From positions 1 through 37,431 of IMG/VR virus record IMGVR_UViG_3300002091_000013: a stretch of DNA of 37,431 nucleotides. One strand, 5' to 3'. The notes under the pieces are model-generated. The model ran no database searches. It was not told where the DNA came from and worked only from the letters and a program-made list of their open reading frames with translations. Below, in pieces: positions 1 through 37,431 of this stretch. The stretch comes from a virus. Every line of letters starts with the position of its first letter. Within the stretch, counting starts at the first letter, position 1. Position numbers and translations under genes: made by a program.

Positions 1-101
1 CAACAACAAGTCGCTGTTGGAAAGCTCGAATCAATGCTAGGCCAATTACAACGACAACTGCAAACTTCCATGAAGAAAACAGGCAAGATGGGTGGCGAAG
101 T
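1..101. repeat. Terminal overlap copy 1 (identical to 37331..37431); circular or terminally redundant contig
   Basis: Direct reading: caacaacaagtcgctgttgg...ggtggcgaagt occurs at both ends without mismatch. Confidence 0.95.
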
Positions 102-198
102 ACCTAAGTTTGCTGATGAAGATATGGTTGTGGTAGAAGGACCTAACGGTGAAGAAACGATGACTTATGCCCAAGCTAAGGCTCTAGGAGCAGAATAA
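1..198 (+). CDS. 3' end of the junction-spanning virion protein gene (continuation of 36416..37431)
   Basis: Frame 1 is open from base 1 to TAA at 196-198. The frame matches the ORF that runs off the right end. The stop overlaps the next ATG (TAATG). Confidence 0.7.
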   Translation, partial: QQQVAVGKLESMLGQLQRQLQTSMKKTGKMGGEVPKFADEDMVVVEGPNGEETMTYAQAKALGAE

Positions 199-1400
199 TG
201 GCCGGATATAAAATCAAAGGTTTGGCACAGCCAGCTGGCGGTGGCGGAGGCTATAGAATTAAAGGTGCTGCGCCACAGCAAGACATGCCAGAACAACAGA
301 TGCAAGAACAGCCACAAGGAGTTGGGAGCATTCCTGATGACTTCGTAGATATGCTTAGCAATCTGATGATGGCAGGTGGCGAGAAGGCTATGAAACTACC
401 TGATGAATTTTCAGAAGCTGGGAAACAGTTCGCGGAACATCCATTTAAAACACCTCCCCGTGCCGCCCAAAATATCTTGTCTAGTGTATTGGAAGGTGGG
501 AAACAACTTTATAACCTACCTTTGAATATTAATACTTATTTAGGTGGAAAAGGCGTTCCCGTATTTAAACAAACAATGGGATTAGCTAATAAACTTAAGA
601 TTGGTGACACCGGACTAGAGAAAGCTGTGCTTGGTGAAGAGCAACCAGGTGATCAACTGTTTAAAGATATTGGAACTGTAGGATCATTGTTTGCTGGACC
701 TGAAATGGTAGGCGCTAAACTGCCAGCAGTGACAGCCAAGGGAATTACCAAATCTATTTCAGCTACGAAAGCCGCTAGAAAAGCTACAGCAGCAAAAGAT
801 TACAGTTCATTATTTGAAAGAGCAGGTGAAGCAGGGATAACACATGCGAAACCACCAAAGTCAGTGACTGCCTCTGAAAATCATATTGTTGAACACTCTG
901 AGCCAAGGTTTCATGAATCATTACAAACTTATATTGAAAACCCAACAGTAGAGAACGCGCATTGGGCACAGAGTGAACTTGGAGCGTTAGAACGTCACCT
1001 TGACAGCATTTCTAAAAAGAATGGACTAACGCCCTCACAGATTAAGACATTCAAAGCGGTTCAACAAGCACGAAAAGGCATTAAAGAGTCAATGTTTTCT
1101 AAACAGGCTATGGGTGCCAATCCAAAATTGGGGAAAGAATATGATCAATTGGCTCAGAAATATAAAGAGGAAGTGGTTCCCTATACCAGCTTAGAGGATA
1201 TTCATCAGTTTGAAGCGGGAAAGATGAGACCAAAAACTGTTGTGAAGAACTTGCAGCGTGATGAAGAGTTCATGACAAAACTTGCTAAAGACTATCCAGG
1301 CTTAAAATTACATACACCAGCAGCTAAGAAAGTCATGTGGGGACTCATGGGACTTATGGGGTATGATGAGGTTAAAAAGCTATTGAGAGAACTCAAGTAG
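198..1400 (+). CDS. Hypothetical virion protein (possible internal/ejection protein), 400 aa
   Basis: Long ORF coupled by TAATG to the upstream gene. N-terminal Gly run (PAGGGGGY). It lies between the tail-tube-like genes and the fibre genes. Function is inferred from position only. Confidence 0.6.
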   Translation: MAGYKIKGLAQPAGGGGGYRIKGAAPQQDMPEQQMQEQPQGVGSIPDDFVDMLSNLMMAGGEKAMKLPDEFSEAGKQFAEHPFKTPPRAAQNILSSVLEGGKQLYNLPLNINTYLGGKGVPVFKQTMGLANKLKIGDTGLEKAVLGEEQPGDQLFKDIGTVGSLFAGPEMVGAKLPAVTAKGITKSISATKAARKATAAKDYSSLFERAGEAGITHAKPPKSVTASENHIVEHSEPRFHESLQTYIENPTVENAHWAQSELGALERHLDSISKKNGLTPSQIKTFKAVQQARKGIKESMFSKQAMGANPKLGKEYDQLAQKYKEEVVPYTSLEDIHQFEAGKMRPKTVVKNLQRDEEFMTKLAKDYPGLKLHTPAAKKVMWGLMGLMGYDEVKKLLRELK

Positions 1401-4198: not shown

Positions 4199-7100
4199 GT
4201 GACTACTATAAATGCAGTTGGTACATCATTATCCGGACAAACCGGGACAGGTGCTTTTGCGGGCTCCGTTAGTCCTACTTTAACTACACCAATTATTGCT
4301 CGAATTAATGATGCCAGTGGAAATGCCCAGTTAAACTTTACTTCAGAGCCATCTGCTGTAAATTATGTAAACATTTATAACACTTCAACTGGTAATGGGT
4401 TAGCCATAAATGCTCTCGGCGCTGATACTAATATCGGCATTGCATTAGGTGCAAAAGGTACTGGTGTAGTTGCTTTAGATACACAAGCATTAACTAACCA
4501 ATATCAATTTACATCCGGAACATCATTTGTTCATACATCGGTATTTAATTTCCCTGTTACCGCTTTAACTAGAACTTACACATGGCCTGATGCTGATGGA
4601 ACTGTTGCCTTAGCGAGCTCACCTTTATCTGGTTATGTTTTATTGTCCCCAAGTGGGAACCAAACAATTACAGATCATGATTTATATTTATCATTAGGGT
4701 CATTTCATTCTGGATCCCCCGCCGGTGGTGTTAACGGAAATTTTACAGCTTATCCCACAACTGCAAATAGTGGTTTTATAGAAATAATTGCAAATACCAA
4801 CTCGTCCGGAAACTTTGGAGTTGTCATTTTACCCACAGGTTCAATTGCACAGACACAAACATTATCAATTCCAGACGCAGGACAAGCTTCATCAACATTC
4901 ATCCTAAGCACATCTGGCTCAGGCCAAACAATTGGGGGTGGATTAACTGTTAATGGAGGATTAACTCTCGGGACCCCTTTAGCTCCAACCAGCGGAGGAA
5001 CAGGAACAGCAACAGCACCAAGTGCGGGTCAGATTCCAATTGGTAATAATGGGGGAACTTATACGCCGGCAGCGATTAATTCCGGAACCAATATTACAGT
5101 TGCGAATGGCTCTGCTTCAATAACTGTAAATTTATCTGGTGTAATTTCCCCTACATTAGGGGGAACAGGCGTAAATAATGGTTCTAATACGCTGACCTTA
5201 GCCGGAACTTTGGCTACAAGTGGTGCGTTTGCGTCAGTATTTACAATGACAGGCGCTACAAATGTTACATTTCCAACTAGTGGCACGTTGGCAACTACCG
5301 CCGGAACTGTCAGTTCAGTTTCAGGAACATTAAATCGTATTACGTCCACCGGTGGCACTACTCCTGTTATAGACATATCCGCAAGTTATGTTGGCCAATC
5401 TTCCATTACAACTCTTGGAACAATCACAACAGGAGTATGGCAAGGAACATTAGTTAGTCCAATTTATGGCGGAACAGGGGTTAACAATGGCTCTAATACA
5501 TTAACTTTGGCTGGAACATTGGCAACAAGTGGCGCATTTGCATCTGTATTTACTATGACGGGTGCCACAAATGTCACATTCCCAACATCAGGAACACTTG
5601 CTACGACTGCTACAGCCTCCGGTATCGTAAATTCCGGATTACAAAACCAATTAACTTGGTATGCTGCTAGCGGCACTACTGTAAGCGGATTGGCTACGGC
5701 TAACAATGGATTGCTGGTTACTTCATCCGGTGGCGTTCCCAGTATTGGCAATGCTATTGGCGCTGATATCACCGTCAGTGGTGCTACAGTTGGTTTAGGT
5801 GGAAGCGCTGTCACAACCAATTTGGCTGTAGGCGTTTCAGCATTGGCGGCTAATACTAGCGGCGTACATAACCATGCATTTGGTTATCAAGCAATGCAGG
5901 CTATGCAAACTGGTAACAATAACACTGCTGTAGGGTATTTAGCCTTAAATGCTAATACAAACGGTACAGGTAACGTTGCAATAGGTAGATTGGCGTTACA
6001 AGCTGGCGTAAGCGGTAGTAACAACGTTGCGGTTGGTTCTGGCACCATGAATAGTGCCAGCTTTAACTCATCACAGAATAATGCGCTTGGCACAGGTGTA
6101 TTGGCCTCATTGACTACTGGTAATACCAATACATCAATGGGTAACAATAGCTGCCCTCTAATCACAACAGGAAATAACAATACTGTCTATGGTGCAAGTG
6201 CTGGTGGTATATTGGTTGGTGGTTCTGACAATACTCTCCTAGGAACAGGGGCCACTACTGATAGTGCATCGTGTTCCGGTGCTATAGCCATTGGTGAAGG
6301 TGCTACTGCTACGATTGCTACTGGTGTCACTTCTGCTGATGCAGGCCCAGGGATTGCAATTGGATCATCTAGTTTTCCAGTCGGTTTTAGAGGTAATGGA
6401 ACTATTTACCCAAGCTCTTCAGGTGCAGGATTTTGGCGAGCTAAGATAAACGGAACGCAATACTTTATCCCACTATTTGCCGATTCATCTACTTCAAGTG
6501 GTGCTGTATTATTAAATCCTGCTGCCGCACAAACTATAGCTACTTATCCATTGAATCTTCCAGGTAGTGTTTATAGCCCTGCCATTTTAGATTCAAATGG
6601 CGCGAATATGCTGACTTTTGTTACATCCGCATCAGCCGTTAATTATTTTAATATGTATAATTCTCCGGCTGGTAGCGGATTAATTTTTCAAGCGTTAGGT
6701 GCTAGTACAGACATTAACGTTGGAATTTATTCTAAAGGCGCTGGGACAATAAGTCTTAATGCATTAGGCTCTACTAACCAAATCCAATTTACTACTGGCG
6801 GCGGTGGTGTTCATACATCATTGTTTAATTTCCCCGCAACATCAGCATCGAGAACTTATACTTATCCAGATGCTACGGGAACTATGCTTATCTCAGGAAC
6901 CGCGATTAATTCGGTTCCAAGCATTACATTTAGTTCAACATCAGGAATTATAGGAACCACAACGAATGACAGTGCTGCGGCTGGAAGTGTTGGTGAAGAA
7001 GTGCAAAGCATTGTAACACGTGCTTCTGGTGGCGTAAGTTTGACCAACGCAACGTCTGCGGATATCACAAGCATTAGCTTAACAGCTGGTGATTGGGATG

Positions 7101-8178: not shown

Positions 8179-9341
8179 TGGCTATTATAAGTGCAAGTCG
8201 TGACTGGGGTACTACTGGTCCAAATATCGTTCGAATCACTGCTACTAACACATTAGCTGAAATGGCGGCTTCTGGTTATGTGACTACTCAAGCTGATGAA
8301 TTAGCAGCTTTGAATAGCGGAACATGGGAATGGGTAGTTGGTGATTTAATCGCTGCTGCGGCATCTGATGGTTCTGAGTTTTTCCGTTTTGATGGTGATG
8401 ATTTCACTACTTTCATTCAATTGCCTGGTGGTAATGGTGAAGTAACATTACCCGTAGTTGCAAATGACTTTGTAGTATTTGATGGCACATTAGGTGCTTT
8501 GAAAGACTTAGGGTTTTCTGCTTCTGATGCTAGTAAAACACGCGTAGTAATGGCCGGTTCTGCGGTTCAGGTTGGCTATATTGCTCACTTCGTAGATACT
8601 GCTGGTACTATTGATGATACTGCTGGTGCGGTTATCAACGCTGGTAATATCCAAGCTGGTTTAAGTGGTACTGCTGGTACTTTGATATCTTTCCCTGCTA
8701 CTGCTGCTAACGGTTCTTTGATCGTAGCTGCTGTAAATGCTGGTGGTGCTTTCAATACTACAATCAGTAACGCTGCGTCTGTTGGCCAATCTCAGGTAAT
8801 TTCTATTCCTGATTCTGGTGCTTCAACTGCTAACTTCATCCTGTCTAAACTGACTGGTACACAACATATTACTGTTGGCGCTTTTGGTGTAGATGCTGGA
8901 GCTATCTCAAGTGGCTTGTCTACTGGCGGATTTGTTGGTTTAATTACAGCATTCCCAACTACTGCTACTTCTGGCTCTATCGCTTTACGCGGTGCGGTCA
9001 ACGGTACTGGTAACTTTGGTACTATCATTAGCAATGCTACTACACAAGCACAAGCACAAGTAATCACTGTGCCTGATGTTGGAGCTGCTACTGGTGCGTT
9101 CGTTGTTACTCCTACAGCGTTCGTTATGAAATCTGTAGCTGGTGCCGCTGCTGCCGGTGGTGCTGCTGCTCAATCATTCACTGATGCCTTCTGTACTTCA
9201 GGAAGCAACGTGATTGGTAACTGGAACACACAAGCAAATGCTGTATCTGTACTTAAAATCGTACCAGGTAACGGTTCATTTGTTGTAACAAGCTCAGGTG
9301 ATGCCGGAGTGGGTACTTTCAACTACATAATTACTAAGTAA
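8178..9341 (+). CDS. Fibre-like structural protein, 387 aa, probably abundant
   Basis: Contains two tandem ~55-aa modules (FPATAANGSLIVAAVNAGGAFNTTISNA..VISIPDSGASTANFIL and FPTTATSGSIALRGAVNGTGNFGTIISNA..VITVPDVGAATGAFVV). One copy of this module also occurs in the 4199 gene. GCT/GGT/ACT-biased codons resemble the capsid gene. A strong terminator follows. Confidence 0.75.
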   Translation: MAIISASRDWGTTGPNIVRITATNTLAEMAASGYVTTQADELAALNSGTWEWVVGDLIAAAASDGSEFFRFDGDDFTTFIQLPGGNGEVTLPVVANDFVVFDGTLGALKDLGFSASDASKTRVVMAGSAVQVGYIAHFVDTAGTIDDTAGAVINAGNIQAGLSGTAGTLISFPATAANGSLIVAAVNAGGAFNTTISNAASVGQSQVISIPDSGASTANFILSKLTGTQHITVGAFGVDAGAISSGLSTGGFVGLITAFPTTATSGSIALRGAVNGTGNFGTIISNATTQAQAQVITVPDVGAATGAFVVTPTAFVMKSVAGAAAAGGAAAQSFTDAFCTSGSNVIGNWNTQANAVSVLKIVPGNGSFVVTSSGDAGVGTFNYIITK

Positions 9342-9362
9342 TGTGAGTTGAATTTCAATGGT

Positions 9363-9397
9363 AAGTGCCCTATCTAAAGAATAGGGCACTTTATTTT
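9363..9397 (+). terminator. Rho-independent terminator
   Basis: AGTGCCCTA (9364-9372) pairs with TAGGGCACT (9382-9390) across a 9-nt loop, followed by TTATTTT. Confidence 0.8.
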
Positions 9398-9410
9398 ATG
9401 GAGATAGGAA

Positions 9411-9629
9411 ATGCTTGCAGATTTAAAAGGTCGTGTTGAAACTATTGAAAAAGCAATTGGTGAGTTAGTTGCCAACCATAGAGATTTGTTAGTAAGATTG
9501 GATGAAGCTAAATATCTTTTAGACTTCTTCACCAAGGCTGCTGAGATAGTAGCGCCTGATAGTGCGGTGACGGAAATTCTGGAAGCAGGGCAGACATTAA
9601 TCGAGAATGTACAAGAACCCCAGGCTTGA
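9411..9629 (+). CDS. Hypothetical protein, 72 aa, predicted helical, no TM segment
   Basis: RBS GGAG upstream. Lies immediately before the endolysin gene. No hydrophobic stretch, so not called a holin. Confidence 0.5.
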   Translation: MLADLKGRVETIEKAIGELVANHRDLLVRLDEAKYLLDFFTKAAEIVAPDSAVTEILEAGQTLIENVQEPQA

Positions 9630-10032
9630 ACAGAAGATTGAAGCACACGAAGGCAAGAAACGATTTGTCTATTTAGACTCATTGAAAATTGCCACCATTG
9701 GTATTGGGCGTGCTATTGCGCCTGGTACTAATGGTCTATCGGATGATGAATGTTATTATCTATTGAGAAATGACATTGATAGGGTTTATCAATCTTTAAA
9801 AGATTATGATTGGTTCAGCAAACAGAATGATGTTATCCAAGGCGTCTTAATAGAACTTGGATTTAATATCGGTATTAATGGATTATTAGCATTTAAAAAG
9901 ATGATCGCAGCTCTCCAGAAGGATGACTACGATACCGCATCTAAAGAAATGTTAGATAGCAAATGGGCTTCTCAGGTAGGCAATACTCGAAGCACCGATA
10001 TGGCGGATAGGATGAGGCTAGGAAGATATTGA
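9607..10032 (+). CDS. Endolysin, GH24 (T4-type) lysozyme
   Basis: EAHEGKKRFVYLDSLKIATIGIGR carries the E-x8-D-x5-T catalytic signature and the TIGIG motif of phage lysozymes. Confidence 0.85.
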   Translation: MYKNPRLEQKIEAHEGKKRFVYLDSLKIATIGIGRAIAPGTNGLSDDECYYLLRNDIDRVYQSLKDYDWFSKQNDVIQGVLIELGFNIGINGLLAFKKMIAALQKDDYDTASKEMLDSKWASQVGNTRSTDMADRMRLGRY

Positions 10033-12773: not shown

Positions 12774-13078
12774 CTGTCCTTTAAATTATTTATAGCATCT
12801 TTGTATTTATTCAGAACTTTATCGCCTGCTTCTTTAACTTCCGCGGCTGACGCATAGTTAAAAGGTTTTGAATATTGTAGTGAGAGATAAAGAAACTCTT
12901 CTACTTTTTTCAGCCGGTCATCTAAATCGAGAATGCGCATGTGATCTTGGAAATGATTCTTGGCATCTTCATAATCACGTGTTAGTCGGCGCCAATGAAA
13001 GCGCGCCGCAAAAACAATCATGGAAGCTCCGAAGAAACCGCCTAGAACACCAGCGAAAATACAATCAACTTCGTTCAT
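12770..13078 (-). CDS. Membrane-anchored hypothetical protein, 102 aa
   Basis: Internal Met of track ORF 12770..13129, chosen because GGAGG lies 6 nt upstream. N-terminal hydrophobic segment CIFAGVLGGFFGASMIVFAA. Confidence 0.5.
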   Translation of the reverse strand: MNEVDCIFAGVLGGFFGASMIVFAARFHWRRLTRDYEDAKNHFQDHMRILDLDDRLKKVEEFLYLSLQYSKPFNYASAAEVKEAGDKVLNKYKDAINNLKDR

Positions 13079-13751
13079 CTTTGGCCTCCGAGTGACAAAT
13101 CTTCTTATATTTGCAACGTTGGCACGCATAATACCAAGGAGAATTGTTAATTTTATCGGGTGCTTCTTCCATTTTAGATATCATTTGGGCCTTGGATTTT
13201 AGCTCATGATAGAAAATATCATCGTATTTTACCCATTCCATACGCCAATCGCTGTTATTTTTGTTAATTACACAAAATAACGTGTCTTTTAATCCTTTCA
13301 TGCCCATGTAAGATTGCACTTGCGCATAGTAAACAGGTGACCAAACTTTCACACCACCTTCTTCCTTGGCGTACTTCTCAAAACGCTCAGCCTTGGCGGT
13401 TTTAATCTCTAAAACCACAGGCAATGACTCACCTATGTAGAGCAAACCATCCATATGACCACGAAATAATTCTATATCTTCATCAACACAGAACAAATAA
13501 TCATTGTCACTACATGGCGTATCAACTCTAAATCCAGCTGAAATAATGTAATCGATCACCATTCCTTCTAAACGGCGACCGATTTCCATTGTTCTCTCTT
13601 CCTGTGCCGTCAATGCCATTCCTTCTATGGCATGATAATCATACCAAATAGCACGAGTACAGGTTTTGCCGATGCCACTGGCGCCAATGTAGCGCCGTGG
13701 TTCGTGCTTTAATTGCAAAATCGCTTCATCTACTAATTTAGCTAAATCCAT
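13065..13751 (-). CDS. Cas4/RecB-like PD-(D/E)xK exonuclease with Fe-S cysteines
   Basis: HMDGLLY ... VLEIKT ... YYAQVQSY form the nuclease core. One N-terminal Cys (GKTCTRA) plus C-terminal C-x2-C-x5-C (CQRCKYKKIC) match Cas4-type 4Fe-4S ligands. Confidence 0.75.
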   Translation of the reverse strand: MDLAKLVDEAILQLKHEPRRYIGASGIGKTCTRAIWYDYHAIEGMALTAQEERTMEIGRRLEGMVIDYIISAGFRVDTPCSDNDYLFCVDEDIELFRGHMDGLLYIGESLPVVLEIKTAKAERFEKYAKEEGGVKVWSPVYYAQVQSYMGMKGLKDTLFCVINKNNSDWRMEWVKYDDIFYHELKSKAQMISKMEEAPDKINNSPWYYACQRCKYKKICHSEAKDERS

Positions 13752-14296: not shown

Positions 14297-14602
14297 CTAA
14301 TGTGAATATAATTGTACTAAATAAGACTGAATGGCATGTTTCCCTAACTCTGAGACAAGATTCATATAGTAATTGTCGCGTTGTTCTTTGTTAGGGATTT
14401 CCATACCTTTCACCATGTTGATCAAGATGGTGTTCATCATCGTTGAGCAAATAGTTCCGTAATACTCGGCAGCGTGATTCTCAAGAATATCGTGATCTAC
14501 AACCTTAGAATCTTCTTGGATAACTTTTAGCAATTTCATACAAGTTTCATGCGCTGACTTAAAAACAGGATTTTGCATGAACTCATCACTCACCTTTATC
14601 AT
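14297..14602 (-). CDS. Hypothetical protein, 101 aa
   Basis: ORF in the operon, overlapping the upstream gene end. Confidence 0.5.
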   Translation of the reverse strand: MIKVSDEFMQNPVFKSAHETCMKLLKVIQEDSKVVDHDILENHAAEYYGTICSTMMNTILINMVKGMEIPNKEQRDNYYMNLVSELGKHAIQSYLVQLYSH

Positions 14603-15365
14603 TCTTCAATCCTTTGTAAAATGGGATATATTTAGCTAATGAATCGAAGTTCATAGGGATAGAAGCAGGCATATTAAACCTGTTCTTGCTCACGTGAACG
14701 TCATTCATACCAGCCGAAATAACTCGGTCTTCTGTGCTTTTAACAATCGTTCTACCAGAATCAGTTTCAAGCGTATGAGACTTAAGCTTGCAATAAAGTA
14801 CCGCATCAACGTCATCGATGTAAACGATTCGAGATTTATCGGAGTTCATGACAATCGACAAAATGTCATAGTCTTCAGCTTCTGGTGATTTGAATTTCTT
14901 GATCTCAAGATGTGAAATATAGATAACAGTCACCCCACGTTCTTTAAACTTATCAAATTGAGATTTCAGTGCGCGATGCAAACTAGCAGCTTTCTCAAAA
15001 CCAGCACCATAACCACCAAAAGCTTGTGCTATCGTTTTTGCTGGCTGCTTATCTTTGCCAGGAGGGCTTTGTTCAATGGTATATTCAACTATCAACGCAT
15101 CAAGCTTACTAATACTATCGATTACAAGCGTTCTAAATGGCAATTCCTCTAGTGCTAATAACGCCTTCACGTTATCCCACATCTCAATGAACTTATGAAC
15201 AATAGGCAGCGCTTGAATGCCTGGTAGCTCATTGTCTTCAGTTAATAGGAATAAGGGATCGGGGAACTGGCTAGCTAAGGTTGATTTTCCAATACCAGGA
15301 CGACCATAAATAGTTATCCTTGGTGCCCGTGACACCGTTGTAAATACGCTATCTAATACACTCAT
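14586..15365 (-). CDS. Sak4-like RecA-fold ATPase (AAA_24 type)
   Basis: Walker A YGRPGIGKST and Walker B-like LVIDSI. Start moved to the Met giving an ATGA overlap with the HNH stop. Confidence 0.8.
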   Translation of the reverse strand: MSVLDSVFTTVSRAPRITIYGRPGIGKSTLASQFPDPLFLLTEDNELPGIQALPIVHKFIEMWDNVKALLALEELPFRTLVIDSISKLDALIVEYTIEQSPPGKDKQPAKTIAQAFGGYGAGFEKAASLHRALKSQFDKFKERGVTVIYISHLEIKKFKSPEAEDYDILSIVMNSDKSRIVYIDDVDAVLYCKLKSHTLETDSGRTIVKSTEDRVISAGMNDVHVSKNRFNMPASIPMNFDSLAKYIPFYKGLKNDKGE

Positions 15366-15841
15366 GATACATGCTTCCAATTTCGACCATGTTTAATATT
15401 ACCAATCATTGGCCTCGTTACTTTATACATATCAGCAATTTTGTACATGCTAATTCCTTTTGCCAACATCCCTTTAATTTCTATCACTTGAGTTTCATTT
15501 AATTTAGCCTGATTATTCAATTCACCACGAAACACAGGAGGTTTTTTCATTCTTCCTTTCTTCCGTGCGTCAATAAGATTTTCAAGTTGAGTTCCAATTG
15601 ACAAATGAGAAGGAGCTAAACACAAGGGATTGTCACAAGAGTGAATCACGCACAGCCCAGTAGGAATTGCGCCAACAAATAACTCATACGAGTATCTATG
15701 GGCCTTAATGGTTTGGCTTCCAAATCTTGAAAATTGACCATAGCCAGCAGTTGTTAGGCTATTGCCAATCCAATTCATACATCCATTCTCATTGGGTAAT
15801 GAGACTTTTGCGTAAAATCTATTTTTTATATAATCCCTCAT
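15362..15841 (-). CDS. HNH homing endonuclease
   Basis: GCMNWIG...GYGQF...KAHRYSYE...VIHSCDNPLCLAPSHLSIGTQLEN is the HNH_3 pattern. A C-terminal helix-turn-helix-like tail follows. Confidence 0.85.
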   Translation of the reverse strand: MRDYIKNRFYAKVSLPNENGCMNWIGNSLTTAGYGQFSRFGSQTIKAHRYSYELFVGAIPTGLCVIHSCDNPLCLAPSHLSIGTQLENLIDARKKGRMKKPPVFRGELNNQAKLNETQVIEIKGMLAKGISMYKIADMYKVTRPMIGNIKHGRNWKHVS

Positions 15842-18844: not shown

Positions 18845-20653
18845 ATGAGCATAGCACAAGTGACAAATATTCAACAAGATTTAAGCAAATTATTCGGCGA
18901 AAACCAAGGTTATTGGGAGTATAGGGACAAAAATAATAACTTTTTATGTTACACAGTCAGGAAAACAAGCAAAGAAACGGGTAAAAAATATTTTATTCCT
19001 TTTATTTATGAGAACAACAAATGGTTATCTGAGTTTTTTAAAGACATAAAAGGGGAAACCATTAAAGAGCGGCCTATTTATAATGTGAAAGAGCTTTATG
19101 ATCGGCCGGATTGCCCTGTTTTGTTAGTTGAGGGAGAGAAAACGGCTGATGCCGGTAAATATTTTTTCCCGGAAATGGTCTGTGTTACTTGGCTTGGAGG
19201 GTCTGGAAAGGCGAAAAATGCTGAGTTTTATCATTTGGAAGGCAGAACAGTATATTTTATTCCAGATAACGATGAATCAGGATATAAGGCGGCTGATGTA
19301 ATTATTGATCGCTTATTAAAACTAAATATTGAACTTCATTTTGTTGATATAAAGCAACTTGGTGTCCCGGAAAATTGGGATATAGCTGATTTATACGATG
19401 ATTACGGGACTATTGGCGTCGAAGATGTTCTGATGACAGTTCGGGATTGCCCTCAATACACATTACCCGTTGCCGAATTTGATGGTTCTTCTTATCCTGA
19501 TATGAGCGATGCCACTAAACCAAAGCCATTAGATACGGCTGCTAATTTAAAACATATGTTGGATTTTTATAAAATAAATACTAGATGGAATATGATGGCT
19601 CGAATTAGGGAAATTACAATCCCTGGAACTCAGTTCTATATGGAAGAACGAGATAACGCAGCTTTACATCATATTACCGACATGGCAATTACCCATAATT
19701 TACCATCCAAGCGTGTGGATAAGCATTTAGATGCTATAAGCTGGGATAATACCTACCATCCGGTTAGGGATTGGATATTAAGCGCCCCACTTTCAGACCA
19801 TGAAATTTTTGATAAATTTTTAACGACAATCAAAACGACTAATGATGACTTATCATTCATTTTACTTCGAAGATGGTTAATTTCAGCCATCTGCGCTGTA
19901 TTTACTGAGTCAGGTTTCTGTGCTCAAGGCGTTCTAGTTATACAAGGAGAGCCAAACACTCATAAATCCTCTTTCGTAATGTCGCTTGCACCTCAAGAAA
20001 TGCGAGCCATAAAAGGAGGGTTATCCTTAGATCCCTCTAAGAAAGACGACATATTCACATCAGCTGAATATTGGATAGCTGAGCTTGGAGAGCTAGACGC
20101 AACATTCCGCAAAGCAGACATCGCACGCCTTAAATCGCATATCACCAATGATATTGACGATGTTCGTAGACCACACGCCGTGCGCAATAGCCGCATGATG
20201 AGAAGAACCGTATATGCCGCAACAGTCAATGAGGCCCGTTTCTTGGTCGATAAGACAGGTAACAGACGTTGGTGGACCATTAGCGTCACAGAGCCCATAC
20301 AAACACGTCACGGGCTTAATATGCAACAGCTATGGCGTTATGTGTATGAGCTTTACTTGAAGGGCGAATCACCCTTCCTAACGCGCGAGGAAATGGAACA
20401 ACTGAATGAAATGAACAAAGAGTATGAGTTCCTAGATCCATTCGAAGAAAAACTAGAAACTCATTTTGATTGGGAATGGCCAGATAGATTGTGGATGAAC
20501 TCCTCAGAAGTACTTCAACGTATAGGATATGACAAACCTACTACTAACGATTGTACTCGCATGGGAACACTACTGACTAAGATGAAAATACAGAAAGGAA
20601 CCGGAAGGAAACATCGACATTATTTCATGCCTATCTTCCTTCCGCCGCGGTAA
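18845..20653 (+). CDS. DNA primase/helicase-like replication protein (Toprim + VirE/P-loop domains)
   Basis: Toprim motifs VLLVEGEKTADAG and YFIPDNDESGYKAA. C-terminal VirE-like region with P-loop-like IQGEPNTHKSSF and RRWW motif. Confidence 0.85.
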   Translation: MSIAQVTNIQQDLSKLFGENQGYWEYRDKNNNFLCYTVRKTSKETGKKYFIPFIYENNKWLSEFFKDIKGETIKERPIYNVKELYDRPDCPVLLVEGEKTADAGKYFFPEMVCVTWLGGSGKAKNAEFYHLEGRTVYFIPDNDESGYKAADVIIDRLLKLNIELHFVDIKQLGVPENWDIADLYDDYGTIGVEDVLMTVRDCPQYTLPVAEFDGSSYPDMSDATKPKPLDTAANLKHMLDFYKINTRWNMMARIREITIPGTQFYMEERDNAALHHITDMAITHNLPSKRVDKHLDAISWDNTYHPVRDWILSAPLSDHEIFDKFLTTIKTTNDDLSFILLRRWLISAICAVFTESGFCAQGVLVIQGEPNTHKSSFVMSLAPQEMRAIKGGLSLDPSKKDDIFTSAEYWIAELGELDATFRKADIARLKSHITNDIDDVRRPHAVRNSRMMRRTVYAATVNEARFLVDKTGNRRWWTISVTEPIQTRHGLNMQQLWRYVYELYLKGESPFLTREEMEQLNEMNKEYEFLDPFEEKLETHFDWEWPDRLWMNSSEVLQRIGYDKPTTNDCTRMGTLLTKMKIQKGTGRKHRHYFMPIFLPPR

Positions 20654-20752
20654 CGCCTAGGCGTTACGCCTGGTTACGCCTCATTTTGGTAGGCGTAACC
20701 GACATAGACCATACTGGGTATGGTTCCGTTACGCCGTTACGCCTGTTACTCC
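20650..20752. repeat. Left iteron array (GTTACGCC orientation)
   Basis: GTAACGCC at 20650. GTTACGCC at 20663, 20673, 20728 and 20736. GTTACTCC at 20745. One inverted GGCGTAAC at 20692. GTAACGCCTAGGCGTTAC (20650-20667) is a perfect palindrome. Confidence 0.85.
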
Positions 20753-20757
20753 TATTT

Positions 20758-20790
20758 ATAATAATAATAATAATAATAATAATATATATA
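20758..20790. repeat. (ATA)9 trinucleotide microsatellite followed by a TA run
   Basis: ataataataataataataataataatatatata read directly. Confidence 0.95.
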
Positions 20791-20826
20791 GAGACACGTG
20801 AAATACGCGTATAGTACAAAAAAATA

Positions 20827-20936
20827 GGCGTAACATCGTAACGGCGTAACCAAATCGTCTACAACCCGCTCCAGCACTGACTTGTTACGCGTTACGGGGC
20901 GTAACATAGGCGTAACATATTTGGTATAGGCGTAAC
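20827..20936. repeat. Right iteron array (GGCGTAAC orientation)
   Basis: GGCGTAAC at 20827, 20843, 20898, 20909 and 20929. Partial CGTAAC at 20837. Two degenerate forward copies, GTTACGCG at 20884 and GTTACGGG at 20891. Confidence 0.85.
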
Positions 20937-20973
20937 CGAAATTAAGTTGTTTAATTAGAGTGAAGGAGAGAAA

Positions 20974-21267
20974 ATGGACACAAAGTATAAGATAGTTCAA
21001 TTGTTGCCTGTTACGGATGTTTGGATTAGATTTAAAGAGGACACTGGCGAAGATTATTATGACAAGGCCATTGCGTTAGCATTAATTGAATATCACATGC
21101 CATCTATTGGATTATGCCAAGGATTAACATATTTATGTCGTGCTGAAGTTGAAACGCTGGAAGTTGGCGGCATTCAGCAAACTCAGGACATTTTCTTTGA
21201 ATGGGAACTGCCAGAGGAGTTAAAGCGTGACTTGGGAGGAGTTCGTAAAGGAAGTTGCGGAGTTTAG
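20974..21267 (+). CDS. Hypothetical protein, 97 aa
   Basis: RBS GAAGGAGAG upstream of the ATG. Confidence 0.55.
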   Translation: MDTKYKIVQLLPVTDVWIRFKEDTGEDYYDKAIALALIEYHMPSIGLCQGLTYLCRAEVETLEVGGIQQTQDIFFEWELPEELKRDLGGVRKGSCGV

Positions 21268-21523
21268 AGGAATAGTACTATTAAGCTTTGATATGGATTG
21301 GTTGGGTAGGTTGCTACCCAACATTCCCTATAATCTTCGTGATAAGACCCTGATTACATACATTGACGTATGGTCTAGTGCAATGTCAGAATGTGACAAG
21401 CCAATTCAGGCTATGAATGTAGGTAGACGCGCTGCTAATATTTATTTAAGAGAGTTAATTGATGAAAGGAATAGTAAAGTTTTACAACACGGAAAAGGGA
21501 TATGGGTTCATCAAGGCGAATAA
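21227..21523 (+). CDS. Hypothetical protein, 98 aa, GTG start
   Basis: GAGGAG lies 7 nt upstream of the GTG. The 3' end overlaps the csp gene by 65 nt. Confidence 0.45.
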   Translation: MTWEEFVKEVAEFRGIVLLSFDMDWLGRLLPNIPYNLRDKTLITYIDVWSSAMSECDKPIQAMNVGRRAANIYLRELIDERNSKVLQHGKGIWVHQGE

Positions 21524-21659
21524 CATTGATTACTTTGTTCATATTAGAGATATTAAAAATATGGCGCCTAATGGTTCGTTAATAGCGGGTCAGAGTGTGG
21601 ATTTTGAAGCTCAAGAGAACGCCAAAGGTAAAACCGCTAAGAATGTACAAGTCATATGA
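21459..21659 (+). CDS. Cold-shock domain protein (CspA family)
   Basis: KGIVKFYNTEKGYGFIKANNIDYFVHIRDI contains the RNP1-like KGYGFI and RNP2-like YFVHI motifs. The 66-aa size is typical. Confidence 0.85.
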   Translation: MMKGIVKFYNTEKGYGFIKANNIDYFVHIRDIKNMAPNGSLIAGQSVDFEAQENAKGKTAKNVQVI

Positions 21660-21922
21660 CAGAGACTATCCTAGAAGAGGCTGAGCATATTGTTGGAGGC
21701 GACAGACGCAAAGAGTACGGTGATGTCCGAGTTAGCTTTATGCGGATTGCGGATATGTGGTCGGGTTATCTTGGATATCAAATCACCGTTTCAGATGTAG
21801 CTCATATGATGATCTTGATGAAGGTGTCACGTAATGCAAAGAACTTTAAGCGTGACAACCTCGTGGACATATGTGGTTACGCACGCTGTGCAGAAATGTT
21901 ACTCGAAGGTCTTCCTGATTAA
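21656..21922 (+). CDS. Hypothetical protein, 88 aa (DUF6378-like)
   Basis: GGDRRKEYGD...F..IADMWS.YLG...T..DVAHMMILMKVSR pattern, as seen in many phage small proteins. Confidence 0.55.
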   Translation: MTETILEEAEHIVGGDRRKEYGDVRVSFMRIADMWSGYLGYQITVSDVAHMMILMKVSRNAKNFKRDNLVDICGYARCAEMLLEGLPD

Positions 21923-22099
21923 CTTGTAGATGATGTTTGTCTTAGGTTTTACTTCTTTCTTTGGATGATCGATAAGTATTTTGTCTGGCGCACAGATAGC
22001 AAGCCGTACTTTGTCGCCTTGATAACTTAATACTTCAATAATAATCTCTTCCCCGTTAATGAATATACGCTCATGCGGGCGTCTCGTTAAAATCAGCAC
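21899..22099 (-). CDS. csrA: CsrA/RsmA-family RNA-binding protein homologue, GTG start
   Basis: MLILTRRPHERIFINGEEIIIEVLSYQGDKVRLAICAPDKILIDHPKK aligns with E. coli CsrA ([46 protein letters not shown]). GGAGGAG lies 9 nt upstream of the GTG. Confidence 0.8.
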   Translation of the reverse strand: MLILTRRPHERIFINGEEIIIEVLSYQGDKVRLAICAPDKILIDHPKKEVKPKTNIIYKLIRKTFE

Positions 22100-36415: not shown

Positions 36416-37431
36416 ATGGGAATTAGCGGATTGATTCCTCAAACCAAGATGCCTATTGATAACTTCAATAATCAGTTTGAGCAGTTAATGCAACAAATAG
36501 CTCGTCATCGCCAAACGAATAACCAAGAGCGTCAACTTGAAGATACAGCCAAGTTCCACGCCCAAGATTTGGCTTTACGGCAAGCTGCCGGTAGACGTGC
36601 CGAACAGCAGATGGACCCAATGTACAAAGTCAATCAACTGAAAGCCATGATGAAAGGTTTGCAGGATATGGCTAATGGAACTACCCCAGATGAAAATAAT
36701 GCCCCACAAGATAGCGGGAACATGGGGAACCAGGGAACAGCTGCTCCAGGAATGCCTCCATTAGCACCTGATAACAGTGGTAATCCAGGTGTTTCAGCTG
36801 AAGGCCCTGGATTTATACCAGAAGGACAAAGCCCATTTGTAGGTCGTGCTGGTTATAAGCCACCGAAAAAGGGAACACATCCCATGGATCAAGAAGTCAT
36901 GCCCGGCATTACCTTAGAAGATGTTGCTCGTCATGCGTTTGGATTGCCTGCTAAGTCTACAAAAGAAACGCCAGAACAAAGACAAGCACGTGATATCGAA
37001 ACGAATCAAGCGAAACTAGAACAGAAAGCCGCGTATGATCAACAACAAGCCGAACAAAAGGAAGTTAAAGCAGTTGAGAAAGATATCCCAACGCTCCATG
37101 AATCTATCAAAGGCGTACAGGATTTACTGAAGATTGCTAAGGAAAACCCTGATATGTTTGGCCATGGTTTTATGCCTGATCGCTACGCCAAAACTAGCAA
37201 GAACAAGAACTTCGGTACTTGGCAGAACTTAATTGCTGACAGAATTGCAGGCCTTGAGTCTAAACTATCATCGCGCGGTAACATCGTAGCACTGAAGATG
37301 GCATCTCAATTGAAACCGAGTCATGCTGATCAACAACAAGTCGCTGTTGGAAAGCTCGAATCAATGCTAGGCCAATTACAACGACAACTGCAAACTTCCA
37401 TGAAGAAAACAGGCAAGATGGGTGGCGAAGT
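36416..37431 (+). CDS. Junction-spanning virion protein gene (5' part; total 370 aa when joined to 1..198)
   Basis: ATG at 36416 right after the upstream TAA. The frame is open to the window end and continuous with 1..198 through the 101-bp overlap. Confidence 0.65.
   Translation, partial: MGISGLIPQTKMPIDNFNNQFEQLMQQIARHRQTNNQERQLEDTAKFHAQDLALRQAAGRRAEQQMDPMYKVNQLKAMMKGLQDMANGTTPDENNAPQDSGNMGNQGTAAPGMPPLAPDNSGNPGVSAEGPGFIPEGQSPFVGRAGYKPPKKGTHPMDQEVMPGITLEDVARHAFGLPAKSTKETPEQRQARDIETNQAKLEQKAAYDQQQAEQKEVKAVEKDIPTLHESIKGVQDLLKIAKENPDMFGHGFMPDRYAKTSKNKNFGTWQNLIADRIAGLESKLSSRGNIVALKMASQLKPSHADQQQVAVGKLESMLGQLQRQLQTSMKKTGKMGGE
37331..37431. repeat. Terminal overlap copy 2 (identical to 1..101)
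   Basis: Same 101 bases as 1..101. Confidence 0.95.

Follow-up and report, generated by a model that had tools for sequence, protein, structure and literature searches.

A probable replication origin of opposed iterons directly downstream of a primase-helicase gene in an uncultured phage

Introduction

The Rep proteins of the staphylococcal pathogenicity islands (SaPIs) are replication initiators that recognise short repeated sequences, the iterons, through a C-terminal winged-helix domain (PMC9371898). Their origins lie immediately downstream of the rep open reading frame (ORF) and contain 6-12 iterons, half of them on each side of an AT-rich centre; at least two iterons per side point in opposite directions, and the Reps probably load themselves there as two hexamers (PMC9371898). 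Phage-inducible chromosomal islands (PICIs), for example EcCICFT073, carry pri and rep genes, sometimes fused, followed by ori, and this module replicates a plasmid (PMC6092414). In P4 a single polypeptide, alpha, combines a DnaG-type primase, a superfamily 3 (SF3) helicase and a C-terminal winged-helix DNA-binding domain (PMC2777425), and ORF904 of the archaeal plasmid pRN1 joins a prim/pol domain to an SF3 helicase and a winged helix, with its origin downstream (PMC2777425, PMC4234260). Here we describe a viral genome of 37,431 nt (positions 1 to 37,431 of IMG/VR record IMGVR_UViG_3300002091_000013; the whole of this stretch is called the window below) in which a repeat-rich, non-coding element at 20650-20936 abuts the gene for a 602-aa primase-helicase. 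On the basis of its sequence we propose that this element is very probably the replication origin of the phage and that it is read by the adjacent primase-helicase.

Results

Exact copies of the 8-mer GTTACGCC occur ten times on the two strands of the window, and all ten fall within the 274 nt of 20663-20936; in 100 dinucleotide-preserving shuffles the expectation was 0.57 +/- 0.77 copies and the largest count was 3. The consensus iteron of the window, GTTACGCCT, is 8-9 bp long, and when up to two mismatches to this 9-mer are allowed there are 15 sites in 20650-20936, which form the sole density peak of such sites (a 350-nt sliding count reaches 15 here and averages 1.1 over the window). An initial annotation, made by a model from the letters and their ORFs, had placed the start of the repeats inside the primase stop codon, and the first copy, beginning at 20650, does contain the TAA at 20651-20653. 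That annotation had also counted about seven copies to the left of a central AT tract and about six to the right of it (20827-20936), with a few in the opposite orientation in each arm. Its count for the left arm was right; in the right arm five copies are exact and the sixth is only the degenerate ATCGTAAC. Strand bias flips across the tract, from mostly plus on the left (six plus, two minus) to minus on the right (five to six minus, one plus).

The inner left array of three tandem iterons occupies the same aligned columns in 10 of 11 aligned origins, L173 having two copies. Around the centre of the element a 22-nt inverted repeat (20726-20747 and 20823-20844) is 86% complementary, and the region as a single strand has strong hairpin or cruciform potential (z = -6.8). 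Two one-mismatch iteron copies also lie 13 nt apart on the minus strand at 5992-6012 (GTAACGCC at 5992 and CTTACGCC at 6005), inside the gene for a 1061-aa tail or structural protein; this pair is probably due to chance, since copies with one mismatch are common throughout (16.6 expected).

The AT-only tract with (ATA)9 and a TA run that had been noted between the two arms was confirmed. It lies inside a run of 38 A/T nucleotides, the longest in the window (the runner-up has 18), and nearest-neighbour energies give it the lowest duplex stability in the window at scales of 30, 40, 60 and 80 nt (z = 4.3-5.4). TA/ATA-rich tracts stand at the same position in all relatives. The further suggestion that (ATA)n would vary in length found no support: the AT tracts were identical within all three pairs of assemblies compared (the window and L255, L001 and L002, L171 and L172, the last two pairs being from different samples), which argues mildly against length variability. 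One 25-kb contig, L165 (logan:SRR21686416_214341), from a relative at 63% identity, ends 22 nt past the primase-helicase stop codon. This is precisely the point at which the repeat/AT element would start, a coincidence suggesting that the element breaks short-read assemblies.

The layout of the element is kept in nine distinct syntenic relatives (12 loci) at 39-73% protein identity. Relatives' loci at 73, 67, 63, 62, 56, 53, 53, 51, 47 and 39% protein identity were taken from a large protein collection, and one further relative, L085, at 69% identity, came from a metagenome scan; apart from L085, the relatives recovered by profile scans of IMG/VR, metagenomes and genomes were mostly distant, at no more than 45% identity. 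Every locus that reaches past the gene has a gap of 265-325 nt straight after the stop codon; in L169 the right half of this gap is overlain by a called ORF. From left to right, the shared order is an outer group of two to three copies plus an inverted one, some 27 nt of spacer, an inner group of two to three copies in tandem with a spacing of 8-9 nt (three everywhere but in L173), the TA/ATA-rich tract, two to three copies of opposite orientation, a spacer of about 30 nt and a last mixed group. The initial annotation had staked its proposal in part on whether syntenic relatives possess the iterons, and the nine relatives carry them at the same place and in the same layout.

The iteron word itself changes between lineages. 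In place of the window's consensus, the word is GTGACACCT in L001/L002, L085, L171/L172 and L173, GTGACACT(T/G) in L003, GTGTAACCT in L004, GTGAGTGAT in L166 and GTGAGCGAT / GTGAGTGAT in L167-L170. There are thus six words among ten distinct genomes (the window and its nine relatives), GTGAGYGAT being the word of one lineage group. Within each genome all of the approximately 12-15 copies have changed together, and their positions are unchanged. Such a change of word by lineage at fixed positions is what would be expected of sites that are read by a phage-encoded protein with evolving specificity.

The protein encoded next to the element contains a VapE-like domain (PF05272, E 2.3e-41) and, N-terminal to it, a match to DUF6371. 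The TOPRIM motifs VEGEKTA and PDxD are invariant across 67 relatives, and the protein weakly matches the dnaG model TIGR01391. When the family profile was compared with PDB sequences, one solved structure was found, 7PDS (E 5.6e-39, residues 270-526), and the same structure was the best Foldseek match of a full-length AlphaFold2 model (mean predicted local distance difference test score, pLDDT, 89) with E 5e-19, a template modelling (TM) score of 0.64-0.66 on the target and about 460 aligned columns. According to its source paper 7PDS is SaPI1 Rep1 (PMC9371898). The model also matched NrS-1, poxvirus D5/E5, African swine fever virus (ASFV) PrimPol, SaPI5 PriRep5, papillomavirus E1 and MCM, and its N-terminus matched the catalytic cores of DnaG. 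Residues ~531-602 are modelled at a pLDDT of about 90 in the order helix-strand-helix-helix-strand-strand (H-E-H-H-E-E), which is that of a winged helix, and a winged-helix fold of this C-terminal domain is likely on the model. The nearest protein of a cultured phage, from Burkholderia phage Mica, is 35% identical, and a single-protein scan of IMG/VR returned no relative.

Among the relatives the primase-helicase is the only constant neighbour of the element, the genes upstream and downstream of the two being variable. One protein, P0008 (from L166), differs in affinity along its length. Its helicase core is 73-74% identical to that of the window's group and 57-59% identical to that of the P0016/17/25 group, and its last 70 residues show the reverse pattern, with 53-60% identity to the P0016/17/25 group against 40-52% to the window's group. 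P0008 shares both the recognition helix DLKRMGDIL and the iteron with the GTGAGYGAT group.

How widespread the arrangement is was assessed in 136 distinct loci that encode related helicases (23-73% identity) on viral, metagenomic and genomic contigs and in which the stop codon had been located; the 400 nt following each stop were searched for repeated copies of one 8-mer, with 1107 windows from the same loci as controls. At least four copies were present in 42% of the downstream windows and in 1.5% of the controls, and at least six copies in 21% and 0.7%, respectively, an enrichment of about 30-fold. In 15 distant examples the copies begin at or just before the stop codon, and most of them show an AT-rich maximum 90-200 nt downstream and a switch, along the element, in the strand that carries the majority of copies.

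Besides the iterons, the spacer of each arm contains a dyad-like element, ACC..CCAG/CTGG..GGT, that stays similar across genomes whose iterons differ. The right spacer element, when reverse-complemented, is homologous to the left one, and in L170, which has a different iteron, the stretch that matches the right spacer element is identical to that of the window. A hairpin in these conserved dyads was considered and dropped, RNAalifold giving no consensus pairs; what is conserved is sequence only. The segment to the right of the AT tract has counterparts as well: L166, L168, L169 and L170 have a similar (G)CGCGTAG(A/G)G followed by an A-run in the corresponding position, and L001 has a looser version. 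Such a ACGCGTAG-like motif with an A-run is present in about half of the genomes, always on the right of the AT tract only, which makes the centre of the origin asymmetric.

The first 101 nt of the window are repeated exactly at its end (1-101 and 37331-37431), and it accordingly represents a complete phage genome, of about 37,330 bp (~37.3 kb), whose assembly closes into a circle. The ORF scan of the window identified a portal, a major capsid protein, a large terminase and tail proteins together with an SF2 (superfamily 2) helicase, a Cas4-like exonuclease (13065-13751) and a Sak4-like annealing protein (14586-15380); none of the ORFs scanned was identified as a DNA polymerase gene. The element is set within a rightward early operon, and the genes on either side of it point in the same direction. 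Between the primase-helicase stop codon and the next ATG (20974) there is a gap of 320 nt (20654-20973), which is non-coding; the mechanical ORFs inside it are unconserved in relatives. Rfam and tRNA scans of the whole window returned nothing, and a DNA search of the region against deposited phage genomes gave no match. The positions of all features of the locus are given in Table 1.

Table 1. Features of the primase-helicase gene and of the putative origin downstream of it. Positions are those of the window unless given as residues.
Feature	Position	Strand	Basis or detail
Primase-helicase gene, 602 aa	18845-20653	+	Pfam, profile and structure-model evidence
DnaG-type TOPRIM primase domain	residues ~1-200		TOPRIM motifs, weak dnaG match, structural matches
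VapE-type SF3 helicase domain	residues ~230-530		PF05272
Predicted winged-helix C-terminal domain	residues ~531-602 (nt ~20435-20650)		predicted topology
Left outer iteron group	20650-20699	mixed	repeat scan; same group, with stop codon in or next to first iteron, in relatives
Iteron, 1 mismatch, GTAACGCCT	20650-20658	+	left outer group
Iteron, 1 mismatch	20659-20667	-	left outer group
Iteron	20663-20671	+	left outer group
Iteron	20673-20681	+	left outer group
Iteron	20691-20699	-	left outer group
Left spacer with dyad ACCATAC-TGG-GTATGGT (20708-20724)	20700-20727		alignment of origins
Inner left array, three tandem iterons at 8-9-nt spacing, pointing at AT tract	20728-20753	+	starts 20728, 20736, 20745 (1 mismatch)
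A/T-only tract, 38 nt, proposed DNA-unwinding element	20753-20790		(ATA)9 at 20758-20784 plus TATATAT
Mixed central segment, ACGCGTATAG (20805-20814) and A7 run (20818-20824)	20791-20825		only right of AT tract
Inner right array, orientation opposite to inner left	20826-20850	-	iterons 20826-20834 and 20842-20850
Degenerate copy ATCGTAAC between inner right iterons	20835-20842	-	repeat scan
Right spacer with CTACAACCCGCTCCAGCACTG (20859-20879)	20851-20883		alignment of origins
Right outer iteron group	20884-20936	mixed	repeat scan
Iteron, 1 mismatch	20884-20892	+	right outer group
Iteron	20897-20905	-	right outer group
Iteron	20908-20916	-	right outer group
Iteron	20928-20936	-	right outer group
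Ribosome-binding site AAGGAG	20963-20968	+	precedes next small ORF
Next small ORF	20974-21267	+	right limit of non-coding element; unconserved in relatives

Several neighbouring genes deserve a record of their own. Just downstream of the putative origin are genes for a cold-shock-domain protein (21459-21659, plus strand; PF00313, E 2e-16) and a DUF6378 protein (21656-21922, plus strand), both of which are kept in several relatives. A 66-aa ORF on the minus strand (21899-22099) encodes a global RNA-binding regulator of the CsrA family (PF02599, E 1e-12); most relatives have a homologue in the corresponding position, so that possession of a phage-encoded CsrA seems to be conserved in the clade. 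Amid the recombination genes an ORF for an HNH endonuclease (15362-15841, minus strand; PF13392, E 1.5e-8) may be a mobile homing endonuclease. A search for the host by way of genome contigs gave a best identity of only 38%; the host is probably not a Firmicute.

Discussion

The repeat statistics, the instability of the AT tract, the homology of the adjacent protein with Rep1 and the layout conserved in relatives together support the interpretation, already put forward in the initial annotation, of 20650-20936 as an origin, and each computational test with the power to refute this interpretation turned out in favour of it. We consider it highly probable that this is where replication of the phage starts and that the primase-helicase encoded beside it is the protein that reads it. 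At the sequence level the element has each of the features of a SaPI/PICI-type rep-ori replicon, a type whose initiator is a hexameric helicase of the SF3 (Rep1/VapE-like) or MCM-like kind. The origin would belong to the type that is opened by a self-loading initiator helicase, and it would be a new example of the known SaPI/PICI/P4-like design in which a primase-helicase gene is followed by its origin.

By analogy with the homologous SaPI system, binding, melting, ring loading and priming might proceed as follows. The 602-aa primase-helicase would bind the 8-9-bp iterons through its C-terminal winged-helix domain, the C-terminal domains docking on the oppositely oriented inner triplets so that two rings could assemble on either side of 20753-20790. 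This AT tract would be the first part to melt, and each SF3 ring would then encircle one strand and travel outward, while the N-terminal TOPRIM primase domain would lay the first primers and a host polymerase would extend them.

Several points weigh against this reading or limit the support for it. On its own the C-terminal domain gave no significant match in Foldseek (best E 0.28), although its top matches were nearly all winged-helix DNA binders, plasmid Rep initiators among them, and a profile of the domain found no significant relative among PDB sequences, only Mbp1 at E 0.2. P0002, P0036 and P0054 share GTGACACCT and yet have dissimilar recognition helices, so that there is no simple residue-to-base code. 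In 12 genomes the Hamming distance between iterons was correlated with the distance between C-terminal domains (Mantel r = 0.34, p = 0.014) and not with that between helicase cores (r = -0.03), and the former correlation rose when the core was controlled for (partial Mantel r = 0.60, p = 0.0005), but the set comprises only these 12 related genomes and the partial Mantel test is known to be liberal. Because the sample is small and its members are related, we regard the finding that iteron divergence tracks the C-terminal domain and not the helicase core as supportive rather than decisive, and cognate Rep-ori specificity is here a correlation of sequences. In Burkholderia phage Mica there is no intergenic gap after the primase-helicase gene, and the arrangement is therefore not universal. 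In the P4 record (NC_001609; L256) the repeat cluster next to the alpha gene is the auxiliary element crr (4291-4590), with ten type-1 octamers that start 46 nt past the alpha stop codon, and not ori (9086-9809), which is 4.5 kb from crr; adjacency to the gene is thus no proof of a start site by itself. Finally, GC skew tracks gene orientation and is uninformative as to the origin.

It is formally conceivable, if rather unlikely, that the element is an origin whose iterons are read by a separate phage or host initiator, the primase-helicase being recruited in a second step as DnaB is recruited by lambda O/P. Such a scheme would fit with the lack of statistical confirmation for the winged-helix fold and with the differing recognition helices of genomes that have the same iteron, and several small uncharacterised ORFs are present in the same early operon. 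However, the primase-helicase is the only gene that is consistently beside the element, iteron divergence tracks the C-terminal domain of this very protein, and its solved homologue, Rep1, itself binds iterons (PMC9371898). A host initiator would moreover not explain the changes of word between close relatives, and neither a DnaA box (with up to one mismatch) nor the consensus for integration host factor (IHF) was found in 12 origins, which fits independence from a host initiator.

P4 also furnishes the model for a second alternative, in which the element would be an auxiliary replication enhancer like crr that binds the primase-helicase while initiation takes place elsewhere. The position of crr just beyond the alpha gene, 46 nt from its stop codon, with ori 4.5 kb off, is a direct precedent, but we think that this explanation has very little chance of being correct here: the window has no second cluster, since exact copies and the density of sites with up to two mismatches all peak in the one element; its most meltable tract lies at the centre of that element, whereas the sequence of P4 crr is without an obvious equivalent; and the protein is homologous to SaPI Rep1 and not detectably to P4 alpha. 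Similarly improbable are readings that give the element no role in replication, as a transcriptional control region in which a repressor or activator of the small genes that follow would find its operators, or as a site for packaging or partition: short words in both orientations do typify operator arrays and some pac and par sites too, and weak promoter-like matches fall within the AT tract, but these matches are at the level of shuffles (4 against 2.6 +/- 1.6), the promoter/terminator scan found no terminator, the flanking genes run in the same direction in one operon, relatives have an Sf6-type small terminase gene some 3.5 kb further downstream and it is in or near that gene that pac sites are usually found, no ParB-like gene was seen, and some 15 sites arranged as two inverted sets round a melting tract beside a Rep1 homologue are the signature of an origin.

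If the element is an origin read by the primase-helicase, its constant parts call for comment. We put forward, tentatively and with more doubt than conviction, that the origin carries two codes, a fast-evolving 'address' of iterons that would be read by the C-terminal domain and a constant part consisting of the spacer dyads and the ACGCGTAG/A-run segment (20805-20824). The constant elements could be start or loading signals for the conserved core of the enzyme, for example priming sites of the TOPRIM domain, or a site for a host factor; priming sites are proposed because DnaG-type primases recognise trinucleotides such as CTG. To our knowledge no constant elements of this kind have been described for SaPI/PICI origins. 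If the two-code proposal were true, the clade would be a natural series in which to study how an origin can change its specificity and leave the initiation machinery intact.

Our analysis locates a probable origin, and names a probable initiator, for a lineage of uncultured phages without a DNA match to deposited phage genomes. It indicates that the rep-then-ori module typical of satellites is also used by complete phages and is common beside VapE-type helicase genes in viral and metagenomic contigs, which provides a simple rule for the annotation of origins. The combination of one layout with six iteron words offers material for the study of how the specificity of initiator and origin, and hence the compatibility of replicons, evolves, and for the design of orthogonal replicons. 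None of these findings overturns current understanding. A literature search found no paper on origins downstream of a primase gene, nor on iterons associated with VapE in phage.

The more remote of the known systems that resemble this locus differ from it in recognisable ways. Papillomavirus E1 and SV40 large T are SF3 helicases of eukaryotic viruses that assemble as two hexamers on inverted short repeats by an AT-rich stretch; they lack a primase domain, and the domain with which they bind the origin differs in fold and is N-terminal to the helicase. E1 was among the structural matches of the window protein. Classical iteron plasmids and lambda-type origins have long iterons of about 17-22 bp in the same orientation together with sites for DnaA or host factors, in contrast to the inverted sets of 8-9 bp seen here. 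The pRN1 protein is also a multifunctional primase-helicase, with a C-terminal winged helix like the one predicted here, and its gene is followed directly by a non-coding region that is essential, but its primase is of the prim/pol and not the TOPRIM type, no iteron arrays have been described for it, and it belongs to a different domain of life.

P4, which the initial annotation had offered as the analogous case, is only a loose analogue. The domain order of alpha is the same, and a cluster of octamer repeats in both orientations lies just 3' of the gene; to this extent the analogy holds. However, P4 needs two separated cis elements, ori and crr, where the window has a single cluster, and no homology to alpha was detectable (BLASTP best E 0.39; hhalign probability <1%, E 0.086; the alpha DNA-binding domain is PDB 1KA8). 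The SaPI/PICI module is therefore the better comparison. PICIs of the EcCICFT073 type, as described (PMC6092414), have the same order of pri, rep and ori; they are satellites that integrate and that carry an integrase and a master repressor, whereas the element of the window sits in the early operon of a phage. More generally, SaPIs and PICIs are satellites, and the window is the genome of a complete phage (37.3 kb) that has its own genes for capsid, portal, terminase and tail.

Compared with SaPI1, the iterons are longer (8-9 nt against 5-6 nt in SaPIs), and the primase, which in SaPI1 is a separate protein, is fused to the helicase as a DnaG-type TOPRIM domain, a primase-helicase fusion being found also in PriRep5 of SaPI5. 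The two systems nevertheless have in common a homologous VapE-type SF3 helicase (profile E 5.6e-39; Foldseek E 5e-19) and a putative or known origin that begins directly 3' of its gene, in which opposed iterons flank an AT-rich centre and the iteron word is specific to the element.

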